Assembly: GCA_963779415.1 (NCBI GenBank)
Contig: CAVZYA010000001.1
Coordinates: 288,001-352,000 of the forward strand
DNA length: 64,000 bases
Direction of reading: 5' to 3'
Origin: an uncultured Acidobacteriota bacterium
GTDB taxonomy: Bacteria; Acidobacteriota; Thermoanaerobaculia; UBA5066
The notes under the pieces were generated by a model, which did no database searches, was not told the origin of the DNA, and was given only the letters and a program-made list of their open reading frames with translations. This document shows, one piece after another, positions 26,437-48,096 of the stretch (positions are counted from its first letter, which is position 1; each line of letters begins with the position of its first letter). Position numbers and translations under genes: made by a program.

Positions 26437-26506
26437 CGCTCCGAGACCGGACGGCCCCGGCCGCGCTGCGGCCGGGGCTGCCTCATCTGAAGGGAGGAAG
26501 TCGCCC

Positions 26507-28704: not shown

Positions 28705-28952
28705 CGGTCCTCCTGCACTTCTCTGATGCCGTCGAGCGCCCGGAAGTTCCGCAGAAGCCGGGGAATCCGTCACCGCGGCAAACAGACGGGCCGGATCCAA
28801 TTGAGCTTGCGTTTCATTCGCGTCTTTCGCTATCCTTCTTCCATTCGGGGCGGTTTCGTGAGCGAGCATCGGAAGAGGTGAGAAGTCATGGCAGAGCGGC
28901 GCCGTGCGGGCCGCCCTCCGTTTTCAGCCAACCGACCAGGTGTGGAGGAGTC

Positions 28953-30131
28953 ATGAAAACCGTTCGAAGCATCTCGATCGCCGCTTCTCTTCTCGTTATG
29001 GCCTTTCCGCTTCTGGGCCAACCGGGGCCGGGGCAGGGGACGGCGCACGCCGCTGTCCTGGTTCCGGACTCAACTCTTGAGCACGCCGAGGACGTGGGCG
29101 TGCGTGCTCACACGAACCATCTGATCAAGGTCGGCCCGCAGTTCGTCGGGACGTCCCCCGCCGGAGAGACGCCGGCCTCGATCCGGACCGTCTACAACCT
29201 CCCCTCGACCGGCGGCACCAACGTGATCGCGATCGTGGATGCCTTCGATTACGCGACGGCCGAGAACGACCTCGGCGTCTTCTCGAATACGTTCGGACTT
29301 CCTCCGTGCACGAAAGCGAATGGCTGTTTTCAGGTCGTCTATGCCTCGGGAAGGAAGCCGCGGAGCAACTGCGGCTGGGCGCAGGAAGCGGCGCTGGACA
29401 TCGAGTGGGCCCACGCCATGGCGCCGTACGCCAAAATCATCCTCGTGGAAGCCGCCAGCAGCAGTTTCGCCGATCTCTTCAAGGCCGTGGACGTCGCCCG
29501 GAAACTGACGGGAGTCACACAGGTCTCCATGAGCTGGGGCGGGAGCGAGTTCTCGAGCGAGGCCGGCGACGATTCCCACATGCTGCAGACGGGCGTCGTC
29601 TTCTTCGCCTCGAGCGGCGACACCGGCGGAGCGACGATCTATCCCGGGGTTTCGCCGAACGTGGTCTCGGCGGGGGGCACGACGATCCACCGCGACGCGA
29701 GCGGCAACTTCACCGGCGAGACGGGCTGGAGCGGAAGCGGCGGCGGCCCGAGCAAGTACGAGGCGAGGCCTTCGTATCAGGACGGCATCAAGGCCATCGT
29801 CGGGAGCGCGCGCGGCGTGCCGGACTTCTCTTTCGACGCCGATCCGAACAGCGGCGTCTCCGTCTACGACAGCACTCCGTGCCAGGGCCTCAGCGGATGG
29901 CTCGTCTTCGGCGGCACCAGCGTCTCTGCTCCCTCCCTCGCCGGCGTCGTCAACCTGGCCGGCGGCTTTCAGTCCAGCAGCGCGCTCGAGATGGGCCTGA
30001 TCTACGGCAATCTCGGCAACTCGACGGACTTTCGCGACATCACCTCCGGAACCGCCGGCAAGTTCAGCTGTGCCGTCGGCTGGGACTTCGTGACCGGCGT
30101 GGGGAGCGACCAGGGCCTGAGCGGCAAGTAG
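28953..30131 (+). CDS. S53 (sedolisin-like) peptidase, secreted
   Basis: EAALD (Glu-x3-Asp), SSGDTG, GGTSVSAP (Ser), GWDFVTG.G; signal peptide; SD GGAGGAG. Confidence 0.9.
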   Translation: MKTVRSISIAASLLVMAFPLLGQPGPGQGTAHAAVLVPDSTLEHAEDVGVRAHTNHLIKVGPQFVGTSPAGETPASIRTVYNLPSTGGTNVIAIVDAFDYATAENDLGVFSNTFGLPPCTKANGCFQVVYASGRKPRSNCGWAQEAALDIEWAHAMAPYAKIILVEAASSSFADLFKAVDVARKLTGVTQVSMSWGGSEFSSEAGDDSHMLQTGVVFFASSGDTGGATIYPGVSPNVVSAGGTTIHRDASGNFTGETGWSGSGGGPSKYEARPSYQDGIKAIVGSARGVPDFSFDADPNSGVSVYDSTPCQGLSGWLVFGGTSVSAPSLAGVVNLAGGFQSSSALEMGLIYGNLGNSTDFRDITSGTAGKFSCAVGWDFVTGVGSDQGLSGK

Positions 30132-30353: not shown

Positions 30354-31727
30354 ATGACCGAAACGATCGCGTTGTCCGACGGGGCCATCAAGACGCTCGG
30401 CAAGAAGTCGACGATCACCGTCATCGCCGGGAAAGCCCGGGCGCTCGCGGCGAAGAACCCCGATTTCGTCCGGGCCGACACGGGGGAAGTCTGTGCGCCG
30501 GGGCTTTTTCCTCCCGGCTACCGGGAGAGCCTCGAGAAGACGGCCCGCGAGGTGCTGCGCGAAGGACGGATCGGATACTCCGCCCCTGACGGCGACCCGA
30601 AGCTGAAGAAGCTCGTCTTCAAGTATTCCATCGAGGACGACCTGCGCGCCCTGATCCTCGAGCGGCTCCGCGACGAGGCAAAGGCGAGCGGCGCGGACGT
30701 CGCGAAGTACACGGAGGAGAGCCTTCCGAAGTTCGTCTCGATCACCCCGGGGGGCGCAGGGGCGCTCGGCGCGGCCATCGCGGTCTTTTTGACGGAGAAG
30801 AAGAGGTTCTTCGTCGTGAACCAGAGGACATGGCAGAACCACAACCTGATCGTCGACATGCACGGCGGGATGCTCTTCCCCGTTCCGCTCGTCGACGAGC
30901 AGGGGCGCGTCGCCGATCCCGACACGATCCTGAAGCTCTGTCATCCCGTCAGGGAACGGATCGCGGCCTTCCTCTTCACCGAAATCAACAATCCGGACGG
31001 CTCCGTCGTGACGGAAGCCTCCGAGCAGAAGAAGCTCGAGGCTATCGTCCGGGGGCTGGACGTCCCGCTGATCCTCGACGCCGCGTACCACGGGATGGTC
31101 TTCGACGGAAAGAAGACGCAGCCCTTCTCGCCCGACGTTCTCAATAAAACCGTCATCTGCGGCAGCTACTCCAAGTCGCTTCAGATCCCCGGCGAACGGC
31201 TCGGTTACCTCGCCAGCTACGACACACGCGTCGTGAGATACGTCTACTTCTACAACCGCTCCCACAGCGGCTGCCCCTCCGTGACGCCCCAGAACGCGCT
31301 CATGGGGCACCTCTCCCTCAACGAGTCGGCCCCCGGAGTGGTGACGACTTACAACAAGGCTCTCCTTTCGGAGCTGGAGACGCGGAGGAACATCCTCGTC
31401 GAGACGGTGAGGAAAGAGCTCGGCTGGAAGATGAACGCCCCGGGGGGCGCCATCTACGCCGTCATCCCGGTCCCGGGCGACGTCGTGAAGGCGTTCGGCG
31501 ACATCGACGCCTTCTCGATCGGCCTCGTCGAGAGGGGGGGCGTCAGCGCCATTTCCGGGAGCGACTTCGAGTTCCGCCTCCGCGGGCCGGTGGGGCACGA
31601 GGAGATCTACACGCCCCCGCCGACGGATCCGTCCATGCACTACCTCCGGTTCTGCTTCGGTTTCACCCCGACCGACCGCGTCGCGCTGGCCGTCCGGAAC
31701 ATCAAGGCTTTCGTCGCGAGCCGATAG
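30354..31727 (+). CDS. PLP-dependent class I/II aminotransferase (divergent)
   Basis: GYSAPDG, ITPGG, NNPDG, ILDAAY, SYSK(PLP)SLQIPGERLGY, YLRFCF. Confidence 0.88.
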   Translation: MTETIALSDGAIKTLGKKSTITVIAGKARALAAKNPDFVRADTGEVCAPGLFPPGYRESLEKTAREVLREGRIGYSAPDGDPKLKKLVFKYSIEDDLRALILERLRDEAKASGADVAKYTEESLPKFVSITPGGAGALGAAIAVFLTEKKRFFVVNQRTWQNHNLIVDMHGGMLFPVPLVDEQGRVADPDTILKLCHPVRERIAAFLFTEINNPDGSVVTEASEQKKLEAIVRGLDVPLILDAAYHGMVFDGKKTQPFSPDVLNKTVICGSYSKSLQIPGERLGYLASYDTRVVRYVYFYNRSHSGCPSVTPQNALMGHLSLNESAPGVVTTYNKALLSELETRRNILVETVRKELGWKMNAPGGAIYAVIPVPGDVVKAFGDIDAFSIGLVERGGVSAISGSDFEFRLRGPVGHEEIYTPPPTDPSMHYLRFCFGFTPTDRVALAVRNIKAFVASR

Positions 31728-31744
31728 CGAGAGGAGCGGAAGTC

Positions 31745-32854
31745 ATGGAGGTCGACGGCGGAAGGCTCGTCCGGTGGCTCCAGGAGCTGATCCGGATCCC
31801 GAGTGTCACGGGAGACGAAGGGGCGGCCGCGCGTTACGTCGAGGAGGAGCTTCGGCAGCTCGGCTATCGCCCGAGCGTCGAGGCGAACAACGTCTACTTC
31901 GAGACGGGCGAAGGCCCCACCTCCCTTCTCCTCAACTCGCACCTCGACACCGTCGAGCTGGGGAAGGGATGGAAGCGCGACCCGTTCGCCGGACTCCTCG
32001 AGAACGGTAAGGTCTACGGCCGCGGAGCGAGCGACGACAAGGGGAACGTCGCGGCGATGCTGGAGATCGCCCGCCTCGCGAAGGGGCGCAACCTCGGCAA
32101 GCGGCTCCTTTTCACCTTCACCACGGGAGAGGAATTCGGCACGAAACTGGAGGAGAAGGGGAGCTTTCTCCTTTCGAAGCACCTCCGGGCCGACAAGGCA
32201 CTCGTCCTCGAGCCGCAGTTCGACGTGAAGGAGCGGCGCCTCAACATCATCCACGGCTGTCGCGGGATCGAGAACATCAAGGTGCAGATCATGGGGAAGG
32301 GGGCCCACACCGGTTATCCGGAGCGCGGCGTCAACGCCGTCTCGCGCGCCGTCCGGATCCTTTCGAAGATCGAACAGATGGAGTTCCACTCGGTCACGGT
32401 CCCGGGGCAGAAAGTCACGACCGTCTGCATGCCGATCCGGATCGAAGGGGGCGCCGACATGTTCCTCGTCCCGGCCACCTGCGAGATCCTCATCCACGCC
32501 CGGACCGCTCCCGGGGACGGGAGGCTCGTCGTGGACGTCGAGCGTATCTGCCGGGAGGTCTGCGGCTCCGACTTCACGATGACGACCCCTTACAGCGCTC
32601 CCGGGTACGTCGAGAGCCACGAGGACCCCCTCATCGACCTGATCCGGAAAGAATCGTCCGCAGCGGGCTGGGTCACCGAGACCCGGTTCGCCGGCGGCCG
32701 GATCGACGCCGCGATCTTCAGGAACGTCGCCGGGATCCCGTCCTTCTGCACGGGGGTCGGCGACCGCGACCAGATGCACCTGATCGACGAGTTCATCACG
32801 GTAGAAGACTTCGTCACCGGATCCGAGATCCTTAAGAAGATCGTCTTCGCCTGA
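31745..32854 (+). CDS. M20 metallopeptidase (ArgE/DapE family deacylase)
   Basis: NSHLDTV, GRGASDDKG, GEE, LEP, C-terminal MH..DE. Confidence 0.92.
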   Translation: MEVDGGRLVRWLQELIRIPSVTGDEGAAARYVEEELRQLGYRPSVEANNVYFETGEGPTSLLLNSHLDTVELGKGWKRDPFAGLLENGKVYGRGASDDKGNVAAMLEIARLAKGRNLGKRLLFTFTTGEEFGTKLEEKGSFLLSKHLRADKALVLEPQFDVKERRLNIIHGCRGIENIKVQIMGKGAHTGYPERGVNAVSRAVRILSKIEQMEFHSVTVPGQKVTTVCMPIRIEGGADMFLVPATCEILIHARTAPGDGRLVVDVERICREVCGSDFTMTTPYSAPGYVESHEDPLIDLIRKESSAAGWVTETRFAGGRIDAAIFRNVAGIPSFCTGVGDRDQMHLIDEFITVEDFVTGSEILKKIVFA

Positions 32855-32877
32855 GACGATCCGAAGCCGAGGTACGC

Positions 32878-34302
32878 ATGTTCCATGACGTCGACGAAGC
32901 GCTCCGTTACATCAGGGACCGGAAGGTCGCCATGGTGGATCTGAAGACGGCCGACCTCCTCGGCCGCTGGCGGCACATGGTCTACAAGACGGGCCACGAC
33001 GACGAGAAAATCTTCACGAAGGGGACCGGGACGAGTCTCAGCTCCTATCCGGGGTTCAAGACGATCGAGGCCGGCGACATGACGATCAAGCCGGATCCGA
33101 CGACCGGCTTCATGGATCCCTTCGCCGAAGTACCGACCCTCTGCTTCATCTGCGATATCTACAACAACGACGGGTCGCCGTTCGAGCTGGACCCGCGCTA
33201 CGTGGCGCGGAAGGCGGAGAAGTACCTCGGGAAGGTGATGCCCGGAGGCTCCACGCTCTGGGGGCCGGAGCTGGAGTTCTACCTCTTCGACGAGGTCCGG
33301 TACCAGAGCGACATCCAGCAGGCGTTCTACCGCGTCGATTCCGCCGAGTCCTACTGGAACGCCGGAAAGGAAGGGAGCCAGGGCTACAACCTCCCCTTCA
33401 CGAAAGGGAGCCAGGCCGACCTCCCGCGCGACCGGTTCTGCAACCTCCGGTCGCGGATGGTTCAGTACCTCGAAGAGGCCGGCGTCCCGATCAAGTACCA
33501 CCACCACGAGTCGGGCTCGCCCGGCCAGATGGAGATCGAGACTTACTTCACGCCCCTTCTTCAGGCCGGGGACAACGTCTTCAAGATGAAATACATCATC
33601 AAGAACGCCGCCGTTCAGGCCGGGAAGACCGCGACGTTCATGCCGATGCCGCTCTATGCCGAGTCGACGAACGGCATGCACTACCACCAGTACGTCACCG
33701 ACGGGAAGAAGTCGCTCTTCTGGGACGCCAAGGGGTACGGCGGGATGAACAGAGCGGGGCTCTCGTACATCGCCGGCATCCTGTCGCACGTCCAGGCGGT
33801 CCTCTCGCTCACGAACGGCAGCACGAACTCCTACCGCCGCCTGGGGGGCTATCGCGCGGCGCCGAACTACGTCTTCTTCTCCGTCGGAAACCGGACGGCG
33901 GCCATCCGGATCCCGGCATACGCCATCAACGAAAGGGAAGCCCGGGTGGAGTTCCGGATGCCGGACGCCACCGGGAACCCCTATCTCTCCCTCGCCGCGA
34001 TGCTGATGGCGGGGCTGGACGGCGTCGAGAAGGGCCTCGACCCGACGAAGGAGGGCTTCGGCCCCTTCGAGGAGAACTTCAACCTGCAGGAGGTCGTCGA
34101 CAAGCACAAGCTGTCGCGCGCTCCCGACAGCCTTCAGGAAGCGCTCCTCGCCCTCGAGAAGGACCACGCCTTCCTGACGAAGGAGAACGTCTTCCCGGAG
34201 GCGCTCGTCAAGGGATGGATCAATGTGAAGGAGACGCTCGAGATCGCGCCTCTCCTCAAGCGACCCCATCCGTACGAGTACGACCTCTACTACGACCTGT
34301 GA
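32878..34302 (+). CDS. Glutamine synthetase type I-like protein (probable gamma-glutamyl-amine ligase)
   Basis: GPELEFY, HHHE..PGQ.EI, GMHYH, NRTAAIRIP, RVEFRMPD are retained, but FDGSS, KGGY and GYEAP are replaced by TSLSS, KGSQ and GYRAAP. Confidence 0.88.
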   Translation: MFHDVDEALRYIRDRKVAMVDLKTADLLGRWRHMVYKTGHDDEKIFTKGTGTSLSSYPGFKTIEAGDMTIKPDPTTGFMDPFAEVPTLCFICDIYNNDGSPFELDPRYVARKAEKYLGKVMPGGSTLWGPELEFYLFDEVRYQSDIQQAFYRVDSAESYWNAGKEGSQGYNLPFTKGSQADLPRDRFCNLRSRMVQYLEEAGVPIKYHHHESGSPGQMEIETYFTPLLQAGDNVFKMKYIIKNAAVQAGKTATFMPMPLYAESTNGMHYHQYVTDGKKSLFWDAKGYGGMNRAGLSYIAGILSHVQAVLSLTNGSTNSYRRLGGYRAAPNYVFFSVGNRTAAIRIPAYAINEREARVEFRMPDATGNPYLSLAAMLMAGLDGVEKGLDPTKEGFGPFEENFNLQEVVDKHKLSRAPDSLQEALLALEKDHAFLTKENVFPEALVKGWINVKETLEIAPLLKRPHPYEYDLYYDL

Positions 34303-36172: not shown

Positions 36173-37939
36173 ATGATCCGTTCGAGGAATCGCATGGGCG
36201 GAAGCCTCGTCGGCCTGCCGGCAGGCGTATCCCTCGCCGTTCTCGTCCTGGCCGCATGGCCGGTCACGGTCTCGGCGCACGCCACGAACTCGAAGCTCCC
36301 GGCAAGCGTCCGTTTCCTGATCGGCGCTGCCGCGCCGCCGAGGTGGGTCGTGTCGGGCCTCGCCTATGCCGCAGGCGTACTGCCGGGATCGTTCTACGTC
36401 TCGGACGTCGTGATCGAGAACCCGAGCACGACGCAGCCGATGAGCCTTTCGCTCGCGCTCGCCGACGGGACGGCCCCCGCCTCCATGGCATGGAAGCCGA
36501 TCCAGCTCTCGCCGATGGAGAGCCGCAGCTTCTCGAACATCCTCCAGAGCTTCTTCGGAAAGGCCGCGGGAGGGCCGGCCACGACGCTCATCGTCAGGGG
36601 CGACTCCCTCCCGACGAACGCGACGCCGGTGATCTGGGCGTCGACGTACAACAACAACGGCGGCGACCCGACGAAGGGAACCTACGGGGTCGCGATTGCG
36701 GCCGTTCCCCTCTCGGCGGCCGTCTCGACCGCTTCGTCCAGGGCTCTCACGGAGATCCCGGGTCTGCGTGACGTTCCGGACTATTCCAGCCGGAGCTCGC
36801 TCGTCGCGTATCCGAACGTCTCCCCGGCCTACACGAACGTCGGGTTCGTGAACCCCGGCAGCGTCCCGGCGACTCTGAAAGTCGACTTCACCTCCTCCAG
36901 CCTCGCGACGATCTCCAAAGAGCTCGGCTCGGAGGTGACCCTGACGCTCAGCCCGAACGAGACGAGGCAGATCACGAAGGCGCTCACGAGACCCGTTCCG
37001 ACCGGAGCGGCGTGGAACGTCATCAGCCAACCGGAGGCAAACTACCTGATGACGGTGAGCGTGGCGGCCGGCGGTATGGTCGTTCCCTACGCTTCGGTCA
37101 AGGACATCGGCTCGTCCGACTCGGTCTTCATGACGAGCGACGGTGCGGTCTCGACGACCTACCGGGTCCCGGCCGTCGTCCGTGCGAACGGCCAGCACGG
37201 GACGGTCTTCCGGAGCCGTCTCGTCCTCTTCAACCCTTCGGGAGCGACGCGCGCCGTGCAGCTCTCCTTCTCATACCTGAAGTGCGTGCGCGGTACCTCC
37301 ACATGCGATCCGCGGAAGGTCGTCGCGGGAAACCTCACGCTCCTCTCCGGGCAGGCGGTCATCTTCGAGGACTTCGTGGGGGAGTGGCTGACCCAAAACG
37401 GCCTCGCCGTCGACGATGGAAGCGACTACACGACGTCGTTCATCGACATCTCGGGCGCCGACCCGAACACCGACCCTCTCCTCGTCCGGGCCGAGACTTA
37501 CAACGCCACGCCGACCGGAAACTTCGGGACGCAGATTCCGGGGTTCGTCGCGTCGATCCACGGGGCCTCGGCGGCGGCCGGAGGACCCGGCAGCCGTCTT
37601 CTGATCCCGCGCGCGGTTCCGAACGGCGGGACCAGCGGCTTCCGGACGAACGTGGCCCTCGTCCTCCTTGCCGGGGCGACCGGTACCGCGAAGGTGCGGC
37701 TCTACCCGAGCGCTGGCGGACTTCCTGCTCTGCCGGACGTCTCTCTCACCGTCACAGCTGCAGAGCCCTTTCTCCAGCGGTCGCTCGAAAACCTCTTTCC
37801 GGCGATCACGTCGTCAGGAGCTGGAAAGAAGTATTCCATCGAGATCGTGGTCACGAGCGGGACGATCGGCGGGTACACGTCGATCAACGACAACGTCACC
37901 GGCGACTCGTCGGTGATCGTGGCCCGCCCGCAGCAATAG
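36173..37939 (+). CDS. Secreted protein with tandem Thermoanaerobaculia-type beta-domains
   Basis: Signal peptide; two repeated modules (YVSDVVIENPS..YTNVGFVN..YASVKD.GSSD and FRSRLVLFNPS..FRTNVALV..YTSINDNVTGD). Confidence 0.7.
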   Translation: MIRSRNRMGGSLVGLPAGVSLAVLVLAAWPVTVSAHATNSKLPASVRFLIGAAAPPRWVVSGLAYAAGVLPGSFYVSDVVIENPSTTQPMSLSLALADGTAPASMAWKPIQLSPMESRSFSNILQSFFGKAAGGPATTLIVRGDSLPTNATPVIWASTYNNNGGDPTKGTYGVAIAAVPLSAAVSTASSRALTEIPGLRDVPDYSSRSSLVAYPNVSPAYTNVGFVNPGSVPATLKVDFTSSSLATISKELGSEVTLTLSPNETRQITKALTRPVPTGAAWNVISQPEANYLMTVSVAAGGMVVPYASVKDIGSSDSVFMTSDGAVSTTYRVPAVVRANGQHGTVFRSRLVLFNPSGATRAVQLSFSYLKCVRGTSTCDPRKVVAGNLTLLSGQAVIFEDFVGEWLTQNGLAVDDGSDYTTSFIDISGADPNTDPLLVRAETYNATPTGNFGTQIPGFVASIHGASAAAGGPGSRLLIPRAVPNGGTSGFRTNVALVLLAGATGTAKVRLYPSAGGLPALPDVSLTVTAAEPFLQRSLENLFPAITSSGAGKKYSIEIVVTSGTIGGYTSINDNVTGDSSVIVARPQQ

Positions 37940-37979: not shown

Positions 37980-38490
37980 TCAGCGCCCCGGTGCCCGCGC
38001 CTCGGCCCGGGAAAGACGAGACTCCAGCTCCGACAGCCTTGCTCTCACGTCTTCGCTCTCTCGCACCCGGGTTTTGGGGGCATTGATCTCGGCTCGCTGT
38101 GCCTCGATGTCCTGCGCCACGAACCCCATGTCGATCCGTCCGTTGCCATCCCGAAGCCGGTACTCCACGGGCCGCAGCGCGAGGACGAAGTCGAGGCCGA
38201 GAAGGACGTCGCGCCGGTTCTGCGGCCAACGAACGCGTTGTAGGACGCCGTGTACTGCAGCGCCTCGAAGGCGAGGAGCGTGTAGTCCTTCTGTCCGAGC
38301 GTCATCCCGGAGTGGTCCTTGAGGGCGACGTGGACGGTGGCCGGACCGCCCACGATGTTGACCATCCCGAAGTGGTGGCGGAAGTTCTCGTTCGATCCCT
38401 GGGTGATCCCCTGAAGCTGGGAGGTCTCGCCGGGGCCGATGGCGAACGTGGCCGCCCTGCGCACGCGAGACGGCCCGCTTCCGAGGAGGA
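37980..38490 (-). pseudogene. Collapsed remnant of a secreted protein with peptidase S74 (tail-fibre chaperone) domain
   Basis: One frame gives FAIGPGETSQLQGI..ENFRHHFGMVN..VALKD..G.TLG.K.Y. After a frame change: LGLDFVLALRPVEY..MGFVAQDIE plus a coiled-coil end. No start or signal peptide. Confidence 0.6.
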
Positions 38491-38540
38491 AAAGGATCTC
38501 CGCGGGTAAGATGCCGCGCGCGAAGGATGAGACCGGCACC

Positions 38541-41500
38541 ATGAAAAACAGCTCTGCCGGCACTACCGCCCCCCGACGAACCTTCCTCGACCCCCATGGT
38601 CTCTCGGCGCGCGCTCTTTCCACGCCCGAGCCGCTCGTCCGCGCCTTCGCGCGGCGGGTCCAGCAGGAAGGGGCGCTGGACCTGACCCAGGGGGACTACA
38701 AGAACGCCGACTTCGCGCCGCACCCGGAAGTCGTCCGCGCGGCCCAGCGGATCACCCGGAACACCGTCCACAGCTACGGGCCGGCCGTCGGCCGGATGGA
38801 CGTGCGGGGGGAGATCGCCGACTTCTTCAACCGCGACGGGCTTCTCGACTACCCCTCCTCGAACGTCCGGTTCCTCCCGGACGAGGTTCTCTTCACCCCC
38901 GGGACGCGCTCGGGCCTCGCGATGGCGCTCGAGGTGCTCGGGGCGGACGGATCGGGCGTGGTGGTCCCGCGCCCGAGCTGGGAATACGACTGGTTCGTCG
39001 AGCGCGCCGGGAAGCGCCTCGTCGAGCTGCCGACGAGCTCTCCCGAGTTCCTTCCCGATCCGGACGAGCTGGAGCGGCTCCTCGAAAAGGGCGACATCTC
39101 GTCCGTCATCATCAACAACCCGCACAATCCGACGGGACGGGTCTACCCGCGGTCGCTCGTCGAGGCGCTCGTCCGGGTCGCGGTGAAGCACCGCGTCTTC
39201 GTCCTCTACGACTCCGTCTACCAGCGCCTCGACTATGTCGGCTCGTTCGTGAATCCCGCCTTTGCCGACCCCGAGTGGCGCGACTGGGTCGTCACCCTCT
39301 CGGGGCTTTCCAAGATGGACATGTTCGGCGCCTCGACGGGGGCCCGGGCATGCTGGCTCGTCCTCTCGGACCAGATCCGTTCGGGCGGGGTGCGCGCGAG
39401 GGAGATTCTCGCGAACCTCTCGGCATGGCTCGTTGCGACCCCCTCGACACTGGCGCAGGACTGGGCGCTCGCGGCGCTCCAGAGCCCCCTGGCGGCGCTC
39501 CGCCGGCCGTCTCCATACATGCGGGAACGGCGCGACTTCATGGCCGAAGGGGCGGACGCGCTCGCGCCTCTCGGGGTTACGCGGACCGACTTCGGCGGGA
39601 CGTTCTACGCCCCTCTCGCCTTCCCGGGCCTCGTCGGCGAGCCGTTCGACCGGCTTCGCAACGGCATCCACGAGCGGGCCGTCGTCCGGACGTCGGTCGA
39701 GGCCTTCGAGTTCCTTCTCGCGGGGGCCGTGGGAGGGATCCCGTTCGCTGCCTTCGCCGGCTCCGACCCGGACCGGTACGGGACGTGGCAGCGCCTTTCG
39801 TACGGCTCGAAGGACGTGAAGGAGCTGGCCGTCTTCATGGAGCGCGTCCGCGCCCGGATCGAGCGGCAGGGGCGCCTCGGGTCGAGCGCGAAGGCCGAAA
39901 CCGCCGTCCGGACCGTGGAGGACGAGGTCTGGGAGAGCACCTGCACCGACGCGGGATACCCGGCTCTCGACGGGCTCGACCCGATCGCGTTTGCCGAGGC
40001 GCACCGAAAATTCCGGGAGGGCTCCGCGCCGGAGACGCTCCGGTCGCTTCGTCTCACGGGGACGAAGCATCCGGATTCCACGGCGCATCGGGCCGAGCAG
40101 CTCGCGCGGGCGATCCGCTCGGTCGAAGCCGGAACGCCGAACCGCGCCGAGCGGGCGCTGACTCATCTCGAATGGAATCCGCTCGTCGAGGCCCGGCAGG
40201 AATACGAGGAGTCGATCGCCGACCTCCTCGGCCCCTGCACCGAAGTGCTCCTCGACTACGAGGGGCGCCAGATCAGCCCGGAGTGGCTGGACGTCCCGGA
40301 GAAGGTCGTCCTCGCCCTTCTCCGCCACGGAATCCTCCCGGGGGAGGACCGGCATCTCCTCTTCCGAGTCCCGAATCCCTGGCTCGAGCAGGACGAGGAG
40401 AAGGTCTCGAAGATCCTCGCCGCGGTCGCGCGGACGAACTTTCTCTTCCTCCTCGCCTGCGAGCGGCTCGGGATCGAGCCCGCGCGCAACGCCATCAACG
40501 AGCTGACCGTTCCCCAGGTGAACTCCGGGGCGGAGCTGGGGGCGGTGGTGAAGATCGGGACGCTCTACCTGCAGGCGGCCGAGGGGCTCTTTTCGGGCGC
40601 CCCGGAGCGCGTCGACGACTTCCTCCGGAGCCGCATTCCCGAATCGCGCCGTGCGGCCCTCACGGCGAAGGTCTCCCGCGTCCGGCTCGTCCCGCTCGTC
40701 GAGAACGTCGGCGCGCTCGCGCACCTTCCCGAGTTCCTCGAGATCTTCTACGAGACTCTGGAGCGGAACCGGGGGGCGGAAGGGCTCCCGACGCCGGCCT
40801 CGTTCCGGACGCGATTCGACGGCTCCGACGCCGTCGTCCGGATCTTCGTCGCGATGTCCGACACGGCCGAGCAGAGCGGGAAGATCGCCACCGACGCGGC
40901 CTTCACTCTCGCGGTGGCCGGGCGGGAGGAGGCGGAGAGACGTCTCGCCGGACACGCCCGGAAGGCGGGGGAGCCGCCGCCGCGCGTGACGTACCTGATC
41001 GGAGCGGGGGGCGCGGGCTTCCGCGGCGGCTTCGATCCGTCGCACGAAGGAGTCATCGCCCAGTTCGCCCGGGCCGACGGCGTCACGATGCAGGGGATCC
41101 GGGCCGACGCTCCCGAGAAAGCCGCTCGGCTCGCCGAGGCCTTCCGCCGCGTGGCGGAGGCCGGAAGCCCGGTGCCGCCGGTCTCCGCCGGGGACCGGGA
41201 GTCGCTCCTCAGGCTCCTCGAAACGGGAGTGAAGGCCCACACGGAGACGCTCCTCCGGATCGCACCGCTCATCGCCCCCTTCAGCGGCCTCGTGCCGCAG
41301 ACGCGCGTCCGGATCCGGGCGACCGGCTCGGTCAACTACGGCCGGTCGATCCCGACCTATCCGGAGGAATGGGGGGGCGGGAAAGACCTCCCCGACAACC
41401 GGGATCTCCGCGACGCGTGGCCGGAGGGGGTGACTCTGCCCCGTGCCATCAACTACAACCTCGGCTGCACGACGCTGGGCCTCCCCGCCGTGACGAGCGA

Positions 41501-42137
41501 CCTTCTGGCGCTCGACAAACGGGCCGCCGTCCTTTTCGGGCGGCAGGTCCCGGGGTACCGGGAGATCCTCGCGAGCGAGCTGCCTTACTTCGTCCGCGAG
41601 TCGGTCGCGCTCGTCTTCGGACGAAAGCTCGCGGAGGCGACGGCGCGGCGGTGCCTCCGGGCGACGGCGGCGCTCTGGATCGACGCGCGCGTCCGCGAGG
41701 AGATCGTCGCGCCGACCTGCCTCTTTTCGATGCTCTACCTCCGGTACGTCGCCGAGGAGTCGGAGAGCTGGGACGAGACGAAGGAGCACGAGAGCCGGAC
41801 GACCCGCGAGGAGGAGCTTCTGCGCGAGACGGCGAGCGGCGCTTTCGGCGCTCTCTCCGCGGAGCGCCCCGGTGACCGGTGGACGCTCCTCCAGTCGCTG
41901 ATCGACGTGGAGGAGGCCTCGCGCCTCCTTCTCGCGCGGGAGCTGACGATCGAGGAGAAGCGGGAGTTCGTCGATCTCCGGATCGAAGGGTGGCTCCGGA
42001 CGCTCCCCGAGAGCCTCTCGCGGGATCTGCGGCGCGACTGGTCCCCGCTTCGGGAGCTTCCGAAGGCCGACCTGACGCTGCGCACCATCGAGCAGATGAT
42101 CGAGCTCGAGAAGCTCCGCGGGAGCCGTGGCGCATGA
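38541..42137 (+). CDS. Fusion: class I (aspartate-like) aminotransferase + archaeal-type phosphoenolpyruvate carboxylase (PpcA-like)
   Basis: N-half: NNPHNPTG, YDSVY, GLSK..TGAR, RLSY. C-half: TKHPD, DYEG, RVPNP, VPLVE, MSD, GFRGG, TMQ, YGRS, LPRAI in PpcA order. Start 38541 supported by an upstream TAAGAT and a purine-rich SD. Confidence 0.82.
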   Translation: MKNSSAGTTAPRRTFLDPHGLSARALSTPEPLVRAFARRVQQEGALDLTQGDYKNADFAPHPEVVRAAQRITRNTVHSYGPAVGRMDVRGEIADFFNRDGLLDYPSSNVRFLPDEVLFTPGTRSGLAMALEVLGADGSGVVVPRPSWEYDWFVERAGKRLVELPTSSPEFLPDPDELERLLEKGDISSVIINNPHNPTGRVYPRSLVEALVRVAVKHRVFVLYDSVYQRLDYVGSFVNPAFADPEWRDWVVTLSGLSKMDMFGASTGARACWLVLSDQIRSGGVRAREILANLSAWLVATPSTLAQDWALAALQSPLAALRRPSPYMRERRDFMAEGADALAPLGVTRTDFGGTFYAPLAFPGLVGEPFDRLRNGIHERAVVRTSVEAFEFLLAGAVGGIPFAAFAGSDPDRYGTWQRLSYGSKDVKELAVFMERVRARIERQGRLGSSAKAETAVRTVEDEVWESTCTDAGYPALDGLDPIAFAEAHRKFREGSAPETLRSLRLTGTKHPDSTAHRAEQLARAIRSVEAGTPNRAERALTHLEWNPLVEARQEYEESIADLLGPCTEVLLDYEGRQISPEWLDVPEKVVLALLRHGILPGEDRHLLFRVPNPWLEQDEEKVSKILAAVARTNFLFLLACERLGIEPARNAINELTVPQVNSGAELGAVVKIGTLYLQAAEGLFSGAPERVDDFLRSRIPESRRAALTAKVSRVRLVPLVENVGALAHLPEFLEIFYETLERNRGAEGLPTPASFRTRFDGSDAVVRIFVAMSDTAEQSGKIATDAAFTLAVAGREEAERRLAGHARKAGEPPPRVTYLIGAGGAGFRGGFDPSHEGVIAQFARADGVTMQGIRADAPEKAARLAEAFRRVAEAGSPVPPVSAGDRESLLRLLETGVKAHTETLLRIAPLIAPFSGLVPQTRVRIRATGSVNYGRSIPTYPEEWGGGKDLPDNRDLRDAWPEGVTLPRAINYNLGCTTLGLPAVTSDLLALDKRAAVLFGRQVPGYREILASELPYFVRESVALVFGRKLAEATARRCLRATAALWIDARVREEIVAPTCLFSMLYLRYVAEESESWDETKEHESRTTREEELLRETASGAFGALSAERPGDRWTLLQSLIDVEEASRLLLARELTIEEKREFVDLRIEGWLRTLPESLSRDLRRDWSPLRELPKADLTLRTIEQMIELEKLRGSRGA

Positions 42138-42553
42138 ACCTCCCCGAGCCGCATCCGCACGAGGTCTTCGAGGCGCTTCGCCGGCGCGGGCCCGGGACGC
42201 GCATCGCCGTGGTCGGCGCGAGCAACAATCCGGCCAAGTACGGGAACATCATCGTCCGGAACCTCGCCGGAAAGGGGTACACGGTCCTCCCCGTGAACCT
42301 CCACGAGAAGGAGATTGCCGGGATCCCGGCGTGGCCGAGCCTCACGGCCGTCCCGAAGCCGATCGACATCGTCGACGTCGTCACGCCGCCGGCCGTCACG
42401 AAGGGGATCCTCGAAGAGGCCGCGCGGCTCGGCCTCCCGGCCGTCTGGCTGCAGGACGGAAGCTGGGACGCCGCGGCGCTCGCCCTCGCCGCGAAGGCCC
42501 CGTTCAAGACCGTCTACGAGGCCTGCATCATGGTCGCGTCGAACTTCGGCTGA
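42134..42553 (+). CDS. CoA-binding protein (YccU-like)
   Basis: IAVVGASNNP.KYG, PVN, DIVDVV.PP, WLQ.G, CIMV; ATGA-coupled to the fusion gene. Confidence 0.9.
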   Translation: MNLPEPHPHEVFEALRRRGPGTRIAVVGASNNPAKYGNIIVRNLAGKGYTVLPVNLHEKEIAGIPAWPSLTAVPKPIDIVDVVTPPAVTKGILEEAARLGLPAVWLQDGSWDAAALALAAKAPFKTVYEACIMVASNFG

Positions 42554-42663
42554 CGGGCGGTGCGTTCCGCGCCGCCGCACCGGTCGGTCGCCCGATTACC
42601 GCCCCGCGCGCAATTCTGGCCGGCAGACGTCTTGCAGGTCCTTCCGGTGAGGGAGGGCACGCG

Positions 42664-44169
42664 ATGCGCCTCAACTGCAAGGAGTCCCGATTTTTCCGCC
42701 CGGTGCGGCCCCTGTTCCGGTCCGCCTTCGCCGTTCCGGTCGTCGCCGTCTTACTCGTCGTCATGGCGGCGTGGTCCAGGCCGGGGAACGCGGTCGAGCC
42801 CGAGAAGGGGCTCGAGGGGGACGACGTCGCACTTCTCTCCCGCGAGAACGCCGCCGTCGAGAAGATCGCCCGGAACGTCACGCCGGCGATCGTCAACATC
42901 CAGACGACCCAGGTCGTCCGGCTCCAGCAGTCCCCCTACTACCAGGACCCGTTCTTCCGGCAGTTCTTCGGTGGCCCGTTCAACATTCCGCGCGAGCAGC
43001 GCGAACACGCGCTCGGCAGCGGCGTGATCGTCGCCCCCGACGGCCTCATCGTGACGAACAGCCACGTTGCGGCCCGGGCGACCGACGTCAGGGTGATGCT
43101 GGCCGACAAGAGGGTCTTCAAGGGAAAGGTGGTCGGCACCGACCCTGACACGGACGTGGCCGTCATCCGGATCGAGGCGAAGGGGCTTCCGACCGTCCCG
43201 TGGGGCGACTCCTCGGCGCTCCGGGTTGGCCACATGGTCCTCGCGTTCGGAAACCCGTTCGGCCTCAACCAGACGGTCACCCGTGGCATCGTGAGCGCGA
43301 TAGGCCGGGCCGGCCTCGGGATCGAGAGCTTCGAGGACTTCATCCAGACGGACGCGGCGATCAACCCCGGCAACTCGGGAGGCGCCCTCGTCGACGTGCA
43401 CGGGCGCCTCGTCGGCATCAACACGGCGATCGTCTCGAACACCTCCGGCATGGGGGGCGAAGGCGGGTCCGTCGGGATCGGGTTCGCCATCCCCTCCAAC
43501 ATCGTCCGGCACGTCGTCGAGAGCCTCCTCCGGACGGGGAAAGTCGAGCGGGGTTACCTCGGCGTGTCGGTCGGCGACCTCGAGGAGGGGCTCGCGAGGA
43601 AGTTCGGCGTCCCGGACACGGCGGGAGCCGTCGTCGAGGACGTGACGCCCGGCTCGCCCGCAGCGAAGGCCGGCCTCAAGGCGGGGGACGTGATCCGGAC
43701 GGTCGACGAGAAGGCGATCGGCTCGAAGGACCAGCTGACCTTCGCGGTCGCGACGGACGATCCCGGCACGGTCGTCCAGCTCGGCATCCTGAGGGATGGA
43801 AGGCCGCAGACGGTGTCCGTCACGCTCGGGTCCCGGCCGGCGAATCTCGGCGTGGCGGAAGGGACGGCGAAGGCGCCCGTGGGGAGCACGCTTCGGGGGA
43901 TCACCGTGCAGAGCCTCGACCCGAAGCTCCGGGAGCATTTCGGCCTCGGCCGGGAGACCTCGGGCGTCGTCATCTCTCGCCTCGATCCGGCGAGCCCGGC
44001 CGCGCAGGGGGGCCTCGCCCCGGGAGACGTCATCCAGGAGATTGACCGGCATCCGGTCCGGACTGTCGCCGACTTCGAGAGGCTGGCGGCCGCGACGACG
44101 GGCGAGGTGCTCCTCCGGATCGTCCGGCAGGGGGCCGGTCTCTTCATCGTGATCTCGCCGGCCGAGTGA
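42664..44169 (+). CDS. Do/DegQ family serine endoprotease (trypsin + 2 PDZ)
   Basis: GSGVI, TNSHV, DPDTDVA, QTDAAINPGNSGG, two PDZ domains. Confidence 0.95.
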   Translation: MRLNCKESRFFRPVRPLFRSAFAVPVVAVLLVVMAAWSRPGNAVEPEKGLEGDDVALLSRENAAVEKIARNVTPAIVNIQTTQVVRLQQSPYYQDPFFRQFFGGPFNIPREQREHALGSGVIVAPDGLIVTNSHVAARATDVRVMLADKRVFKGKVVGTDPDTDVAVIRIEAKGLPTVPWGDSSALRVGHMVLAFGNPFGLNQTVTRGIVSAIGRAGLGIESFEDFIQTDAAINPGNSGGALVDVHGRLVGINTAIVSNTSGMGGEGGSVGIGFAIPSNIVRHVVESLLRTGKVERGYLGVSVGDLEEGLARKFGVPDTAGAVVEDVTPGSPAAKAGLKAGDVIRTVDEKAIGSKDQLTFAVATDDPGTVVQLGILRDGRPQTVSVTLGSRPANLGVAEGTAKAPVGSTLRGITVQSLDPKLREHFGLGRETSGVVISRLDPASPAAQGGLAPGDVIQEIDRHPVRTVADFERLAAATTGEVLLRIVRQGAGLFIVISPAE

Positions 44170-44208
44170 CGGCCCGGTGCGGGGCCGCGCCGGATCGCCG
44201 TCCGGGAG

Positions 44209-45561
44209 CTACTTCACCCGCACCCCGTTCTTCACGACGACGTCGACGTGCTGGAGGAGCCCGATGTTCGCGAGGACGTCGCCGCGGACGGCGACGACGT
44301 CGGCGTAGCGTCCCGGGGCGAGCGTCCCGAGGTCGTTCTCCATCTTCAGAAAGCGGGCGGGCCAGCGGGTCGCCGCGGCGATCGCCTGCATCGGCGGGAC
44401 GCCGAGGCGCACCCACATCTCCAGCTCGCGCCACGTGGAGTCCGTGTGGAAGTTCCCCGGGATGCCGCTGTCGGTCCCGACGAGCATCGTGACGCCGGTG
44501 TCGCGCAGCTGCTGGAACTTGCGCGCGAGAGTGGGGAGCCGGCGGAACGTCAGGGTGAAGTAGTCGAGGTGCGTGATGTCCCGCAGGGAGGCGCGGATGT
44601 CCGCGGCCATTTCCTCCGGCATGTCGCGCTGCCACGTCGGATCGTCGAGCCGGTCGGGGAAGGTGCGTGCCGTGTAATCGGCGAGGAAGAGCCCTTCGAT
44701 CGTGGGGCACCAATAGAGCGTGCTGTTGCGCTTCCGGATCATCTCGAGGATGTCCTCCGGGTAGCCCGGCTCGGTCGCGAGGCCGGTGTGCTCGAAGGAG
44801 TCGATGCCGTACTTCAGGCCGATGCGGATCTCCTCCTCCCGGTGCGCGTGGGCGACGACCGGTTTCCCCCCCTTGTGGGCCGTCTCGACGACCGCTTTCA
44901 CCTCGTCGCCCGTGAGCTGGTCCTGGTCGATCAGCTTGATGAAGTCGACCCCGGCGTCCACGAGCTTCTGGACTTTCGCCCGCGCGTCTTCTGGTCCGTT
45001 CACGCCCCAGCGATACGACGCTTCCTGGGGCGCGTAGGGGGCCCGCTGGATGAACGGTCCCGAGACGAAGAGGCGCGGCCCGGGGATCTCTCCCGAGGCG
45101 ATCCTCTTCCGGACGTCGAGGCTGTCCTCCAGCGGGGCTCCGAGGTCCCGCACGGTCGTGATGCCGCTCATCAGAAGCTGGCGGGCCGCGATCGGCATGA
45201 TCTCGTCGCGGAATCGCCCGAGGTACTTCTTGTCCCAGTACTCATAGTCGCTGTGCCCGAGGATCATCAGGTGGACGTGCATGTCCATCAGGCCGGGCAT
45301 CACGCTCATCCCGCGGGTGTCGATGACGGTCACGCCGGCCGGAATCGGGATTTCGCCGCGGCGTCCGACGGCGACGATCCGCTCGCCGGCGACCAGAACG
45401 ACGCCGTCGTGGATCGGGGGCCCTTCGTATCCGTCGATCACCTGCCCGCCGACCAGGGCGAGCGTCGCCTTCGGCGGGGCCGGAGACTTTTCGGCGGCAA
45501 GGCACGCCGCCGGGAAAGAGATCGATCCTGCGAAAAGAAGAATCAGAAGGAGCCTTCTCAT
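44209..45561 (-). CDS. Secreted amidohydrolase family protein
   Basis: PGLMDMHVH, FIK, VAHAH, FEH, GTDSG, GTLAPGRYAD; signal peptide from ATG 45561. Confidence 0.9.
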   Translation of the reverse strand: MRRLLLILLFAGSISFPAACLAAEKSPAPPKATLALVGGQVIDGYEGPPIHDGVVLVAGERIVAVGRRGEIPIPAGVTVIDTRGMSVMPGLMDMHVHLMILGHSDYEYWDKKYLGRFRDEIMPIAARQLLMSGITTVRDLGAPLEDSLDVRKRIASGEIPGPRLFVSGPFIQRAPYAPQEASYRWGVNGPEDARAKVQKLVDAGVDFIKLIDQDQLTGDEVKAVVETAHKGGKPVVAHAHREEEIRIGLKYGIDSFEHTGLATEPGYPEDILEMIRKRNSTLYWCPTIEGLFLADYTARTFPDRLDDPTWQRDMPEEMAADIRASLRDITHLDYFTLTFRRLPTLARKFQQLRDTGVTMLVGTDSGIPGNFHTDSTWRELEMWVRLGVPPMQAIAAATRWPARFLKMENDLGTLAPGRYADVVAVRGDVLANIGLLQHVDVVVKNGVRVK

Positions 45562-45681
45562 GGGATGCGAGCCTCCTCGGGTCACGCGGCGTCTTCCGGA
45601 AACGACGCGGCGAGTATAGAGCGCCCGCTTCGGGACGGACCGGCTCAGGCGCCGATAGACTCCGGGCCGAAAGGAGCGCCG

Positions 45682-48096
45682 ATGAAACGCGCTCGCGTCG
45701 CCGTCTCCGTCGCCTCGCTCGGCCTCGTCTTCGTCTCCTCCTACGCTCTCGCCCTCGACGAGAGGGGCTACCGGCTCCCGCCGAAGGAGATCGTCGAGAT
45801 CGTGGATGCTCCCGCGCCGCCGCAGACGGTCCCGAGCCCGGCCGGCGACGTCGTCCTCCTCGTCGGCGTCGAGACGTATCCGCCCGTCTCCCTTCTCGCG
45901 CAGCCGATTCACCGGCTCGCGGGAGTCCGGATCTCCGCCGCCCTCGGCGCCCGGCAGCGGACGACGCGGTACACCGGGATCCGGATCCAGCCGATCGAGG
46001 GCGGCCCGGCCCGAACGGTCAAGCTCCCGGCCGGCTCGCGGATCGGCCTGCCTTCCTTCTCGGACGACGGAACGAGGTTCGCCTTCACGTGCGACCTTCC
46101 GGACGGCGTCGAGCTCTGGGTGGGGGACGCGAAGACGGGCGAAGCCCGCGCCGTCCCGCATGTCCGGCTGAACGACGTCCTCGGCTCGCCGTTCGAGTGG
46201 GGGAAGGGAAGCGGCACCCTCCTCGTCCGCGCGGTCCCCGCGGGCCGGGGAGGGCCCCCCGCCGCTCCGGAGGTCCCGGATGGGCCGGTCGTCCAGGAGA
46301 CCGCTGGCAAGACGTCGCAGATGGCGACGTTCCAGGACCTCCTGGCGAGCCCCCGGGACGAGGCTCTCTTCGCGTACTACGCGAGGACGCAAATCGTCCG
46401 CGTGGACGCTTCCTCGCTTCGTGCCGGGAGCGTGGGCATACCGGACTTCTGGCTCGGCGTCGAGCCTTCGCCCGACGGACGCTTCCTGCTTGCGACCCGT
46501 CTGAAGGCCCCCTTCTCATGGCGCGTCCCGTACCCGCTCTTCGCGCGCGACATCGAGGTGAGGGATGCATCGGGAAAGCTCGTCGCCACGGTGGCGGAGC
46601 TCCCCGTCTCCGACGAGGTGCCCCGTCAGGGCGTTCCGACGGGACCGCGCTCCGTGGGGTGGCAGCCCCTCGAGCCGGCTACGCTGATCTGGGCCGAAGC
46701 GCTCGACGGCGGGAACCCGGTGACGAGGGTGCCTCATCGCGACCGGTTGATGGCGCTCGCGGCTCCGTTCACGTCGCCCGCGCGAGAGCTCCTGAAGCTC
46801 AAGCAGCGCCTTTCAGGAGTCTGGTGGGGCGGAAAGCCGGACATGGCTCTTCTTCGCGAGTACGACCGGGACCGCCGGTGGACGTCGACGTGGCTCGTGA
46901 GCCTGGCGGCGCCGGAAGGGGCGAAGGTCCTCTTCGAACGATCGGTCAACGACGCTTACAAGGACCCGGGCGAACCCGTCCTCGAAGACCGCGCCGGGGG
47001 CGAGCGGGTGATGAGGATGGACGGCGACGCGATCTTCCTCGCGGGGGCCGGCGCCGGCGCCGAGGGAGACCGGCCTTTCCTGGACCGTTTCGACCTCGCG
47101 ACAGGGAAGTCGGAACGGCTCTTCCGGTCGGCGCCCGATGCCTTCGAGCGATTCGTCGCGTTCGCGGGGGGCGGGACCCATGAGGCCATCGTCCGGCGGG
47201 AGTCGCCGTCCGAGCCGCCGAACCTCTGGGTCGTCGACCTCTCGACGGGGAAAGGGAGAAAGCTGACCGACGAGAAGAACCCCCACCCGCAGCTCTCCGG
47301 GGTCCGCCGGGAGCGGCTCTCCTACAAGCGTGCCGACGGCGTCACGCTGACCGGTACTCTCTACCTTCCTCCCGGAGTCGCTCCCCGAGCGCCGGGGCCC
47401 GTCCTGATCTGGGCCTACCCGCTCGAGTTCTCCGACGCCGATACCGCGGGGCAGGTGCGCGGCTCGACGCAGACCTTCCTCCGGCTCGTCGCGCCGTCCC
47501 CGCTGTTTCTCGTTCTCGAGGGGTACGCCGTCCTGATGGATGCCACGATGCCGGTCCTCGGCGATCCGGAGACCGTCAACAACACCTACGTCGAGCAGGT
47601 CACCGCCTCGGCGAAGGCGGCCGTCGACGAGCTGGTCCGCCGCGGCGTGGCGGACCCCGCGAGGATCGTCGTGGGAGGACACAGCTACGGAGCGTTCATG
47701 ACGGCGAACCTCCTCGCCCATACGAGCCTCTTCGCGGCCGGGATCGCCCGGAGCGGCGCCTACAACCGGACGCTCACGCCGTTCGGGTTCCAGTCCGAGA
47801 GGCGCACCTACTGGGAGGCTCCGGAACTCTACGCGAGAGTGTCGCCGTTCACCTACGCGGACAGGATCAGGAAGCCGCTCCTCCTGATCCACGGGATGGC
47901 GGACAACAACAGCGGTACCTTCCCGGTCCAGTCCGAGCGGCTCTTCGAGGCGATCCGGGGGAACGGCGGCACGGCGCGCCTCGTGATGCTCCCGTTCGAG
48001 GCGCACGGCTACCGTGCCCGCGAATCGGTCCTCGATACCCTCGCCGAGATGATCGACTGGGCCGACCGGTGGACGAAGACCCCTCCGATCAGATGA
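45682..48096 (+). CDS. S9 prolyl oligopeptidase family (glutamyl peptidase-like)
   Basis: WAYPLEF, GGHSYGAFMTANLL, HGMADNNSGTFP, EAHGY; SD AAAGGAG. Confidence 0.93.
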   Translation: MKRARVAVSVASLGLVFVSSYALALDERGYRLPPKEIVEIVDAPAPPQTVPSPAGDVVLLVGVETYPPVSLLAQPIHRLAGVRISAALGARQRTTRYTGIRIQPIEGGPARTVKLPAGSRIGLPSFSDDGTRFAFTCDLPDGVELWVGDAKTGEARAVPHVRLNDVLGSPFEWGKGSGTLLVRAVPAGRGGPPAAPEVPDGPVVQETAGKTSQMATFQDLLASPRDEALFAYYARTQIVRVDASSLRAGSVGIPDFWLGVEPSPDGRFLLATRLKAPFSWRVPYPLFARDIEVRDASGKLVATVAELPVSDEVPRQGVPTGPRSVGWQPLEPATLIWAEALDGGNPVTRVPHRDRLMALAAPFTSPARELLKLKQRLSGVWWGGKPDMALLREYDRDRRWTSTWLVSLAAPEGAKVLFERSVNDAYKDPGEPVLEDRAGGERVMRMDGDAIFLAGAGAGAEGDRPFLDRFDLATGKSERLFRSAPDAFERFVAFAGGGTHEAIVRRESPSEPPNLWVVDLSTGKGRKLTDEKNPHPQLSGVRRERLSYKRADGVTLTGTLYLPPGVAPRAPGPVLIWAYPLEFSDADTAGQVRGSTQTFLRLVAPSPLFLVLEGYAVLMDATMPVLGDPETVNNTYVEQVTASAKAAVDELVRRGVADPARIVVGGHSYGAFMTANLLAHTSLFAAGIARSGAYNRTLTPFGFQSERRTYWEAPELYARVSPFTYADRIRKPLLLIHGMADNNSGTFPVQSERLFEAIRGNGGTARLVMLPFEAHGYRARESVLDTLAEMIDWADRWTKTPPIR

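Follow-up and report, generated by a model that had tools for sequence, protein, structure and literature searches.

In the aspartate-forming C4 cycle of plants, as in bacterial anaplerosis combined with AspC, aspartate is made from phosphoenolpyruvate (PEP) by two separate proteins, a PEP carboxylase (PEPC) producing oxaloacetate (OAA), and an aspartate aminotransferase (AspAT), for which OAA is the keto-acid substrate. In contrast to these two-protein systems, whose large bacterial/plant-type PEPC (PF00311) is unrelated to the archaeal type, the gene described here joins a divergent archaeal-type PEPC and an aminotransferase in one polypeptide, which would carry out both steps. It lies at positions 38541-42137 (+) of a 64,000-nucleotide stretch (hereafter the window) of contig CAVZYA010000001.1, from an uncultured Acidobacteriota bacterium (assembly GCA_963779415.1). 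A 2020 review of the PEP-pyruvate-OAA node distinguishes four PEPC types, none of which is described as fused, and presents the known archaeal-type enzymes (atPEPC, also PpcA or PepcA) as stand-alone proteins of 55-60 kDa forming tetramers (PMC8100219).

The C-terminal half of the fusion resembles these enzymes by its match to PF14010, its predicted 3ODM fold and the identity of 45 out of 62 conserved positions. Unlike them, it forms a domain of ~690 residues placed behind an aminotransferase, is only ~25-30% identical to canonical members, carries TKHPD and DYEGR where these have TQHPD and D-x-E-G-K, and extends ~100 residues further at its C-terminus. The N-terminal half finds its closest solved counterpart in the subgroup-Ib AspAT of Thermus thermophilus (1BJW), with aligned and conserved residues for pyridoxal phosphate (PLP) and substrate binding, but differs by an identity of ~25-30%, an arginine instead of a lysine at the distal-carboxylate position, and the C-terminal fusion itself. 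Other two-domain enzymes offer partial parallels. In many malic enzymes, an enzyme of the PEP-pyruvate-OAA node is also joined to a second enzyme-like domain, related to phosphotransacetylases (PMC8100219); that extra domain is inactive and allosteric, whereas the one found here keeps every catalytic residue checked. DHFR-TS and the OAA channel between malate dehydrogenase (MDH) and citrate synthase are conceptual precedents for fused or associated enzymes passing on intermediates, including OAA (PMC5976638), any tunnel, electrostatic path or kinetic channelling in the present protein being hypothetical.

The coding sequence is a single open frame of 1198 codons plus a stop, devoid of internal stops, in agreement with the initial annotation, which had read one uninterrupted open reading frame (ORF) of ~1200 residues. 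The longest ORF in this frame opens at an upstream ATG (38439). The start at 38541 is nevertheless the likelier one, since homologues mostly measure 1195-1202 residues and residues 1-21 are unconserved, conservation starting near residue 22. The GC content at third codon positions is 0.90, as in other real genes of the window (~67% GC). The parts of the gene are as follows, the coordinates of motifs being computed as 38541+3(n-1) from the residue number n:

38541..42137, + strand: whole coding sequence of the fusion protein, 1198 residues plus stop (alternative ATG at 38439)
38604..39875, + strand: class-I (subgroup Ib-like) PLP aminotransferase domain, residues ~22-445 (PF00155 and 1bjw matches)
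39312..39314, + strand: codon of K258, the predicted PLP Schiff-base lysine (SGLSK motif), aligned with the lysine of 'NGAAK' in 1bjw and invariant in 102 of 102 homologues
39876..40049, + strand: inter-domain linker, partly helical, residues ~446-503, the lowest conservation of the protein
40050..41687, + strand: divergent archaeal-type PEPC core, residues ~504-1049 (PF14010 and 3odm matches)
40068..40070, + strand: codon of H510 (TKHPD), equivalent to the histidine of T-Q-H-P-D in canonical archaeal-type PEPC, invariant in 131 sequences
41688..42134, + strand: C-terminal helical region, residues 1050-1198, ending in a conserved R1193...G1197 tail

The initial annotation had proposed a class-I aminotransferase followed by a PpcA-type PEPC, and profile searches, sequence matches to solved structures, predicted fold and conserved motifs all agree with this architecture. 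Among Pfam families, Aminotran_1_2 (PF00155) covers residues 46-340 with 114.9 bits (cut-off 19.7), and PEPcase_2 (PF14010) covers residues 548-1031 with 115.4 bits (cut-off 25), aligned over positions 23-440 of the 493 of the model. Two further checks that it had suggested, superposition of an AlphaFold model on the PpcA of Clostridium perfringens and a search for the same domain architecture in other genomes, also came out in its favour, as detailed below.

The fusion is a conserved natural architecture, as judged from its recurrence in sequence collections. A search with the C-terminal half against proteins of 658-2097 residues returned 420 matches, of which the best 120 clusters are 75-88% identical and mostly hold both PF00155 and PF14010; more than 100 database clusters of ~1195-1202 residues carry the two domains. 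Relatives are encoded in 129 stretches of species-representative genomes, 80 of which were kept as loci, all from metagenome-assembled genomes (MAGs). Both halves share one frame in 78 of these 80 loci (72 complete, 6 cut by a contig end) and stand in different frames, following a frameshift, in the other two. Since their contig names reveal a wide range of studies and assemblers, an artefact of assembly can in practice be dismissed. When close relatives of the aminotransferase half were sought outside the fusion, the matches obtained were all fragments or frame-broken pieces belonging to the fused family itself, at 59% identity or more, and looking for close relatives of the PEPC half without an aminotransferase gave pieces of the same kind. 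Neither search showed a split form, the contexts of a few short calls on long contigs (for example P0264, P0272) being left unchecked. A side observation concerns P0109, a gene call of 1070 residues combining a piece of an outer-membrane beta-barrel (PF25183) with the same PEPC domain, probably a chimeric call or a misassembly.

Both halves of the protein are also under purifying selection. The ratio of non-synonymous to synonymous substitution rates (dN/dS), estimated in 12 pairs of homologues, is 0.02-0.11 in the aminotransferase half, 0.09-0.21 in the PEPC core, 0.07-0.53 in the linker (residues 446-505) and 0.03-0.19 in the C-terminal helices. Such low values indicate that both halves are functional, the aminotransferase half being the more constrained. 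The stretch joining them behaves like a linker in the alignments: its mean column conservation (0.62-0.66) is the lowest of the protein, and it is modelled by AlphaFold as short helices with a per-residue confidence score (pLDDT) of 58-94.

In the C-terminal half, the archaeal-type PEPC motifs follow each other in the positions given by the initial annotation, all of which proved correct by arithmetic from the translation: H510 of TKHPD at 40068, then DYEG at 40254, RVPNP at 40365, VPLVE at 40689, MSD at 40854, GFRGG at 41016 and LPRAI at 41436. The core of the domain carries H510, D572/E574 (DYEG), R609, E721 (PLVE), S773-D774, R828 (FRG), Q851, R922, R924, R935 and R968 (PRAI). H510 is the predicted catalytic histidine. 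In an alignment of 131 sequences (fused, canonical and long PEPcase_2 proteins), 30 columns are invariant: T508, H510, P511, E554, E568, D572, E574, G575, R609, P658, P718, L719, E721, R767, S773, D774, G780, G821, G823, F827, R828, G829, Q851, R922, R924, R935, R968, I970, P982 and G1197. The 45 identical positions mentioned above come from a comparison of 18 of the 102 fused rows with the 62 columns conserved at 88% or more in 26 canonical archaeal-type PEPCs.

Structure points in the same direction. The archaeal-type PEPC of C. perfringens (3odm) is the only sequence match of the C-terminal half in the PDB (E 3.3e-13), and in Foldseek searches with the AlphaFold model, whose pLDDT is mostly above 90 in this half, ranks 1-7 are all chains of 3odm (prob 1.00), with template modelling (TM) scores of 0.72-0.77 normalised to the target. 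Downstream of the Pfam match, which ends at residue 1031, residues 1050-1198 account for the ~100 residues in excess over canonical enzymes; they are predicted to be all-helical (pLDDT 69-96), are well conserved (0.82-0.95), and end in R1193 and G1197, both aligned with the canonical C-terminus.

By sequence, the C-terminal half is placed in a tight, divergent clade of archaeal-type PEPC. Among the 1.84 billion representatives of a database clustered at 50% identity, 127 proteins match it, including a single full-length fused representative (P0121, 65% identity), the remainder consisting mostly of fragments from this very family. Three long PEPcase_2 proteins come next (905-1037 residues, 27-31% identity), ahead of canonical enzymes of ~500-545 residues (25-34% identity, E 1e-10 to 6e-4). 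These three long proteins (P0162, P0167 and P0232) are devoid of an aminotransferase domain, and their extra parts have no Pfam match. All three share the arginine of D-x-E-G-R with the fused clade, and two out of three the lysine of T-K-H-P-D; these proteins are possibly the closest relatives that the fused PEPC domain has outside the fusion.

The N-terminal half displays the usual signatures of class-I aminotransferases: NNPHNPTG (residues 192-199), YDSVY (223-227), SK...GAR (257-269) and RLSY (418-421). Its best sequence match in the PDB is the AspAT of T. thermophilus (1bjw, E 3.2e-28), and its nearest solved relatives also include other subgroup-Ib aspartate/prephenate aminotransferases. 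Nine positions (Y79, R123, W147, N196, D224, Y227, K258, R269 and R418) correspond in the alignment to residues of 1bjw that bind PLP or substrate, and none of the nine varies among the 102 fused homologues. The Schiff-base lysine, the PLP-binding Asp, Asn and Tyr, and the phosphate and alpha-carboxylate arginines are all present, R418 being the predicted carboxylate-binding arginine. R123 aligns with the lysine of 'VGGKQAL' in 1bjw, so that the charge is kept although the residue differs, and might serve the binding of glutamate alone; we take this position to be that of the lysine which binds the distal carboxylate of aspartate or glutamate in subgroup-Ib AspATs such as that of T. thermophilus. 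Foldseek retrieves 1BJW among other aminotransferases (E ~1e-11), with TM scores of just 0.47-0.49 that reflect the low confidence of the model in this half. On the strength of their conserved residues, both halves look catalytically intact.

How might two such domains work together? The C-terminal domain would carboxylate PEP with bicarbonate, yielding OAA and phosphate, and the N-terminal domain would then transfer the amino group of glutamate onto that OAA, yielding aspartate and 2-oxoglutarate, for a net reaction PEP + HCO3- + Glu -> Asp + 2-oxoglutarate + Pi. Since the product of PEPC is the keto acid used by AspAT, a bifunctional enzyme is the most economical reading of the fusion, and coupled synthesis of aspartate from PEP is in our opinion the best one, with a fair probability of being correct. 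PEP carboxylation by the C-terminal half, specificity of the N-terminal half for aspartate and OAA, coupling of the two reactions and direct transfer of OAA are all steps that we infer from the fusion and from the conserved active sites. True channelling of OAA, although possible, appears doubtful. Equally tentative is the more ambitious picture of a single-polypeptide 'aspartate synthase', which would constitute a fifth architectural type of PEPC, keep OAA out of the free pool at all times, couple the fixation of carbon to nitrogen assimilation in a single step, and travel between phyla as a one-gene metabolic module.

Several observations weigh against a bifunctional PEP-to-aspartate enzyme. 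The first is the divergence of the PEPC half, which is far greater than the motif list of the initial annotation would suggest: the corresponding motifs are present indeed, but PF14010 scores 115 bits in the fusion against 360-380 in canonical enzymes, and the equivalog model TIGR02751 reaches 108.7 bits, under its cut-off of 146.05. Identity to 3ODM is 18-19% in the structural alignment, and 21-28% to canonical archaeal-type PEPCs in the sequence alignment. Seventeen of the 62 positions conserved in the family differ, including the change from Gln to Lys beside the histidine (TKHPD), from Lys to Arg in D-x-E-G-K, and from Tyr to His at residue 900.

The second is the aminotransferase half, whose top NCBIfam matches are GntC (110.4 bits against a cut-off of 415) and alanine aminotransferase (97.5 against 534), AspAT models lying further down and far under their thresholds (79.5 against 550 for the archaeal AspAT model NF041091, 68.7 against 617 for NF004769). 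Every NCBIfam match being far below cut-off, the specificity of this half for aspartate and OAA is conjectural. In the AlphaFold model, pLDDT falls below 50 over residues 29-86, 256-270, 296-324 and others, a low confidence due to a shallow alignment, and such a model says nothing on a domain interface or a tunnel. A further difficulty is that an archaeal-type PEPC is subject to competitive inhibition by aspartate with respect to PEP (PMC8100219), so that aspartate made beside that site could be self-limiting.

The third concerns the metabolic context. The source genome (4.36 Mb in 3 contigs, 92% complete) contains, in addition to the fusion gene, a separate and intact AspAT-like gene (NF041091, 347.7 bits, below the cut-off of 550), and therefore would not need the fused domain for bulk aspartate synthesis. 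In favour of the proposed reading, the fusion gene is the sole PF14010 match of this genome, in which no match was found, at that completeness, to PF00311 PEPC, PYC_OADA or PEPCK_GTP; PEPCK_ATP is present, its reading frame being broken into 4-5 pieces. Among 301 genomes sampled in the phylum, none of the six that hold the fused gene has PF00311 or PF02436. This absence is not striking, because these families occur in only 71 (including G049, a genome flagged as unpublished) and 38 of the 301 genomes, respectively, and the related genomes holding the fused gene are not independent in such a comparison. Complementarity with other carboxylases was thus discarded as evidence: the trend is the expected one, but too faint to be relied on.

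The same genome also sets another enzyme of the OAA node beside aminotransferases. In the interval G000:C1:367500-373500, ~17-21 kb past the end of the window, three genes lie in a row: a class-I aminotransferase cut at position 266 of the 361 of its model, the broken PEPCK_ATP, and, just downstream of it, the AspAT-like gene. The breaks in this interval stem either from indel errors made locally in the assembly or from decay of the genes.

Does the aminotransferase-like domain catalyze anything at all? It could instead act mainly as a sensor or an oligomerisation scaffold, the binding of PLP and of aspartate or glutamate regulating PEPC without any flux through the N-terminal half. Many malic enzymes provide a model for this: their fused phosphotransacetylase domain catalyzes no reaction, and allosteric control by aspartate, glutamate and acetyl-CoA depends on it (PMC8100219). 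The presence of another AspAT-like gene in the genome and the scores of the fused domain, far under every NCBIfam equivalog cut-off, would fit as well. We nevertheless consider this explanation rather improbable, as the nine catalytic or substrate-binding positions are invariant in all 102 homologues, no part of the protein is more constrained than the aminotransferase half, and a mere scaffold needs neither a Schiff-base lysine, nor the Asp, Tyr and Asn that hold PLP, nor both arginines. The argument from residues is somewhat weakened by the fact that PLP-binding sensor domains can retain several residues of catalytic type.

Alternatively, both halves might be active, with an aminotransferase using another pair of amino and keto acids (alanine, aromatic, prephenate or a specialised substrate), or with two uncoupled reactions, the fusion serving co-expression or stoichiometry. 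The best NCBIfam matches, which include GntC and alanine aminotransferase rather than AspAT and are all below cut-off, leave room for such a scenario, as do the prephenate aminotransferases and C-S lyases found among the structural neighbours, and the basic residue at position 123, which could bind glutamate or 2-oxoglutarate only. However, the best solved relatives of the N-terminal half are aspartate aminotransferases, and enzyme fusions usually join consecutive or tightly related steps (the 'Rosetta stone' logic, a general inference). Moreover, the PEPC reaction is irreversible, uses PEP and bicarbonate, and has OAA as its only organic product (PMC8100219). A different substrate or uncoupled activities consequently seem unlikely.

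It is also conceivable that the PEPcase_2-like half is not a PEP carboxylase, and runs a different reaction of PEP or carboxyphosphate type, or acts on another enol-phosphate. This half forms a separate clade with one full-length representative at 50% clustering, scores below the TIGR02751 cut-off, has exchanged Gln for Lys next to the histidine and Tyr for His at position 900 (Y900H), and bears ~100 extra C-terminal residues. Against this, the histidine, the acidic residues of the metal site, the arginine cluster, the FRG loop and the C-terminal glycine are all kept and the predicted fold matches 3ODM, making such a change of chemistry very improbable. Finally, the view that assembly or gene calling joined two neighbouring genes, for which frame-broken genes of the same assembly (such as PEPCK_ATP) and the two frame-shifted loci could be invoked, is effectively refuted by the continuous frame of the other 78 loci from many studies and assemblers, the more than 100 two-domain clusters of near-constant length, and a linker selected as coding sequence (dN/dS below 1 in 12 of 12 pairs).

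The fused gene is widespread among uncultured soil-type bacteria, with a patchy distribution. In the phylum sample, the six genomes with the fused type comprise the source genome, the three others of its family (3/3), and one in each of two further families, and a canonical-size relative occurs in two more of the 301 genomes. Across MAGs of at least five phylum labels, the fused gene remains 68-81% identical over its PEPC half. These labels are the submitters' own, and bins may be wrong. The 73 rows of a FastTree phylogeny are assigned to Acidobacteriota (41), Gammaproteobacteria (18, mostly Steroidobacteraceae), Chloroflexota (6), Myxococcota (3), Eisenbacteria (3) and Actinomycetes (1), with a single Riflebacteria-labelled row standing outside any group. 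The labels form coherent clades, Gammaproteobacteria being nested within Acidobacteriota, and the tree requires 8 label changes for a minimum of 5. For a gene so patchy and yet so similar across phyla, a few horizontal transfers are the best explanation, and the fused gene appears, from this phylogeny, to have moved between phyla. Among the sequencing runs listed as holders, none is an RNA run, and the best DNA runs contain a fraction of only 0.05-0.16 of the sampled words.

Both domains are already named in databases for fused homologues. The initial annotation had expected automatic pipelines to see only an aminotransferase, an expectation that does not hold: at NCBI, full-length homologues are entered as 'phosphoenolpyruvate carboxylase', and the names given by JGI cover both functions. 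No published description of an aminotransferase-PEPC fusion was found in literature searches, which missed most subscription papers. Both domains belong to well-known families, and the surprise is therefore moderate rather than fundamental. An archaeal-type PEPC fused to an aminotransferase would still add a new architecture to the PEPCs. If the proposed activity is correct, it would provide a natural test case for the channelling of unstable OAA. It would also explain where aspartate comes from in some uncultured Acidobacteriota, Gammaproteobacteria labelled Steroidobacteraceae and Chloroflexota that have neither a classical PEPC nor a pyruvate carboxylase, and a compact PEP-to-aspartate enzyme could be useful for engineering aspartate-family products or C4-like CO2 capture.

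The fusion gene has no constant company. None of 14 neighbouring genes of the window is conserved beside it in the 80 related loci, 12 of them being found in 0/80 and the other two (ACAD and DUF2063) giving single weak matches, and no flanking gene family is common to more than 9 of the 80 loci, so that the gene can be viewed as a self-contained unit. No Rfam family was found between 30000 and 50000 of the window, and no sigma-70-like promoter between 37800 and 42400, an interval with 2 terminator-like sites for 1.4 expected. The ORFs at 38045-38623 (-), 36173-37939 (+), 28878-30131 (+) and 41735-42580 (-) have no credible Pfam match.

Downstream, the interval 42127-48096 (+) encodes an HtrA-like protease with two PDZ domains, starting 11 bases before the stop of the fusion gene, then an S9 peptidase of 1282 residues; neither is conserved beside the fusion gene in other genomes. 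Approximately 4 kb upstream, a run of nitrogen-metabolism genes (30354-34302, +) comprises a second class-I aminotransferase, an M20 peptidase and a glutamine synthetase. These three genes were considered as a clue to function and set aside, the run not being conserved with the fusion gene elsewhere. Further upstream (26003-28203, +), a gene of the MbnB/TglH/ChrH family (PF05114, 356 bits) is directly followed by a DUF2063 gene, and the two look like a peptide-modification pair of the type associated with ribosomally synthesized and post-translationally modified peptides (RiPP-type).

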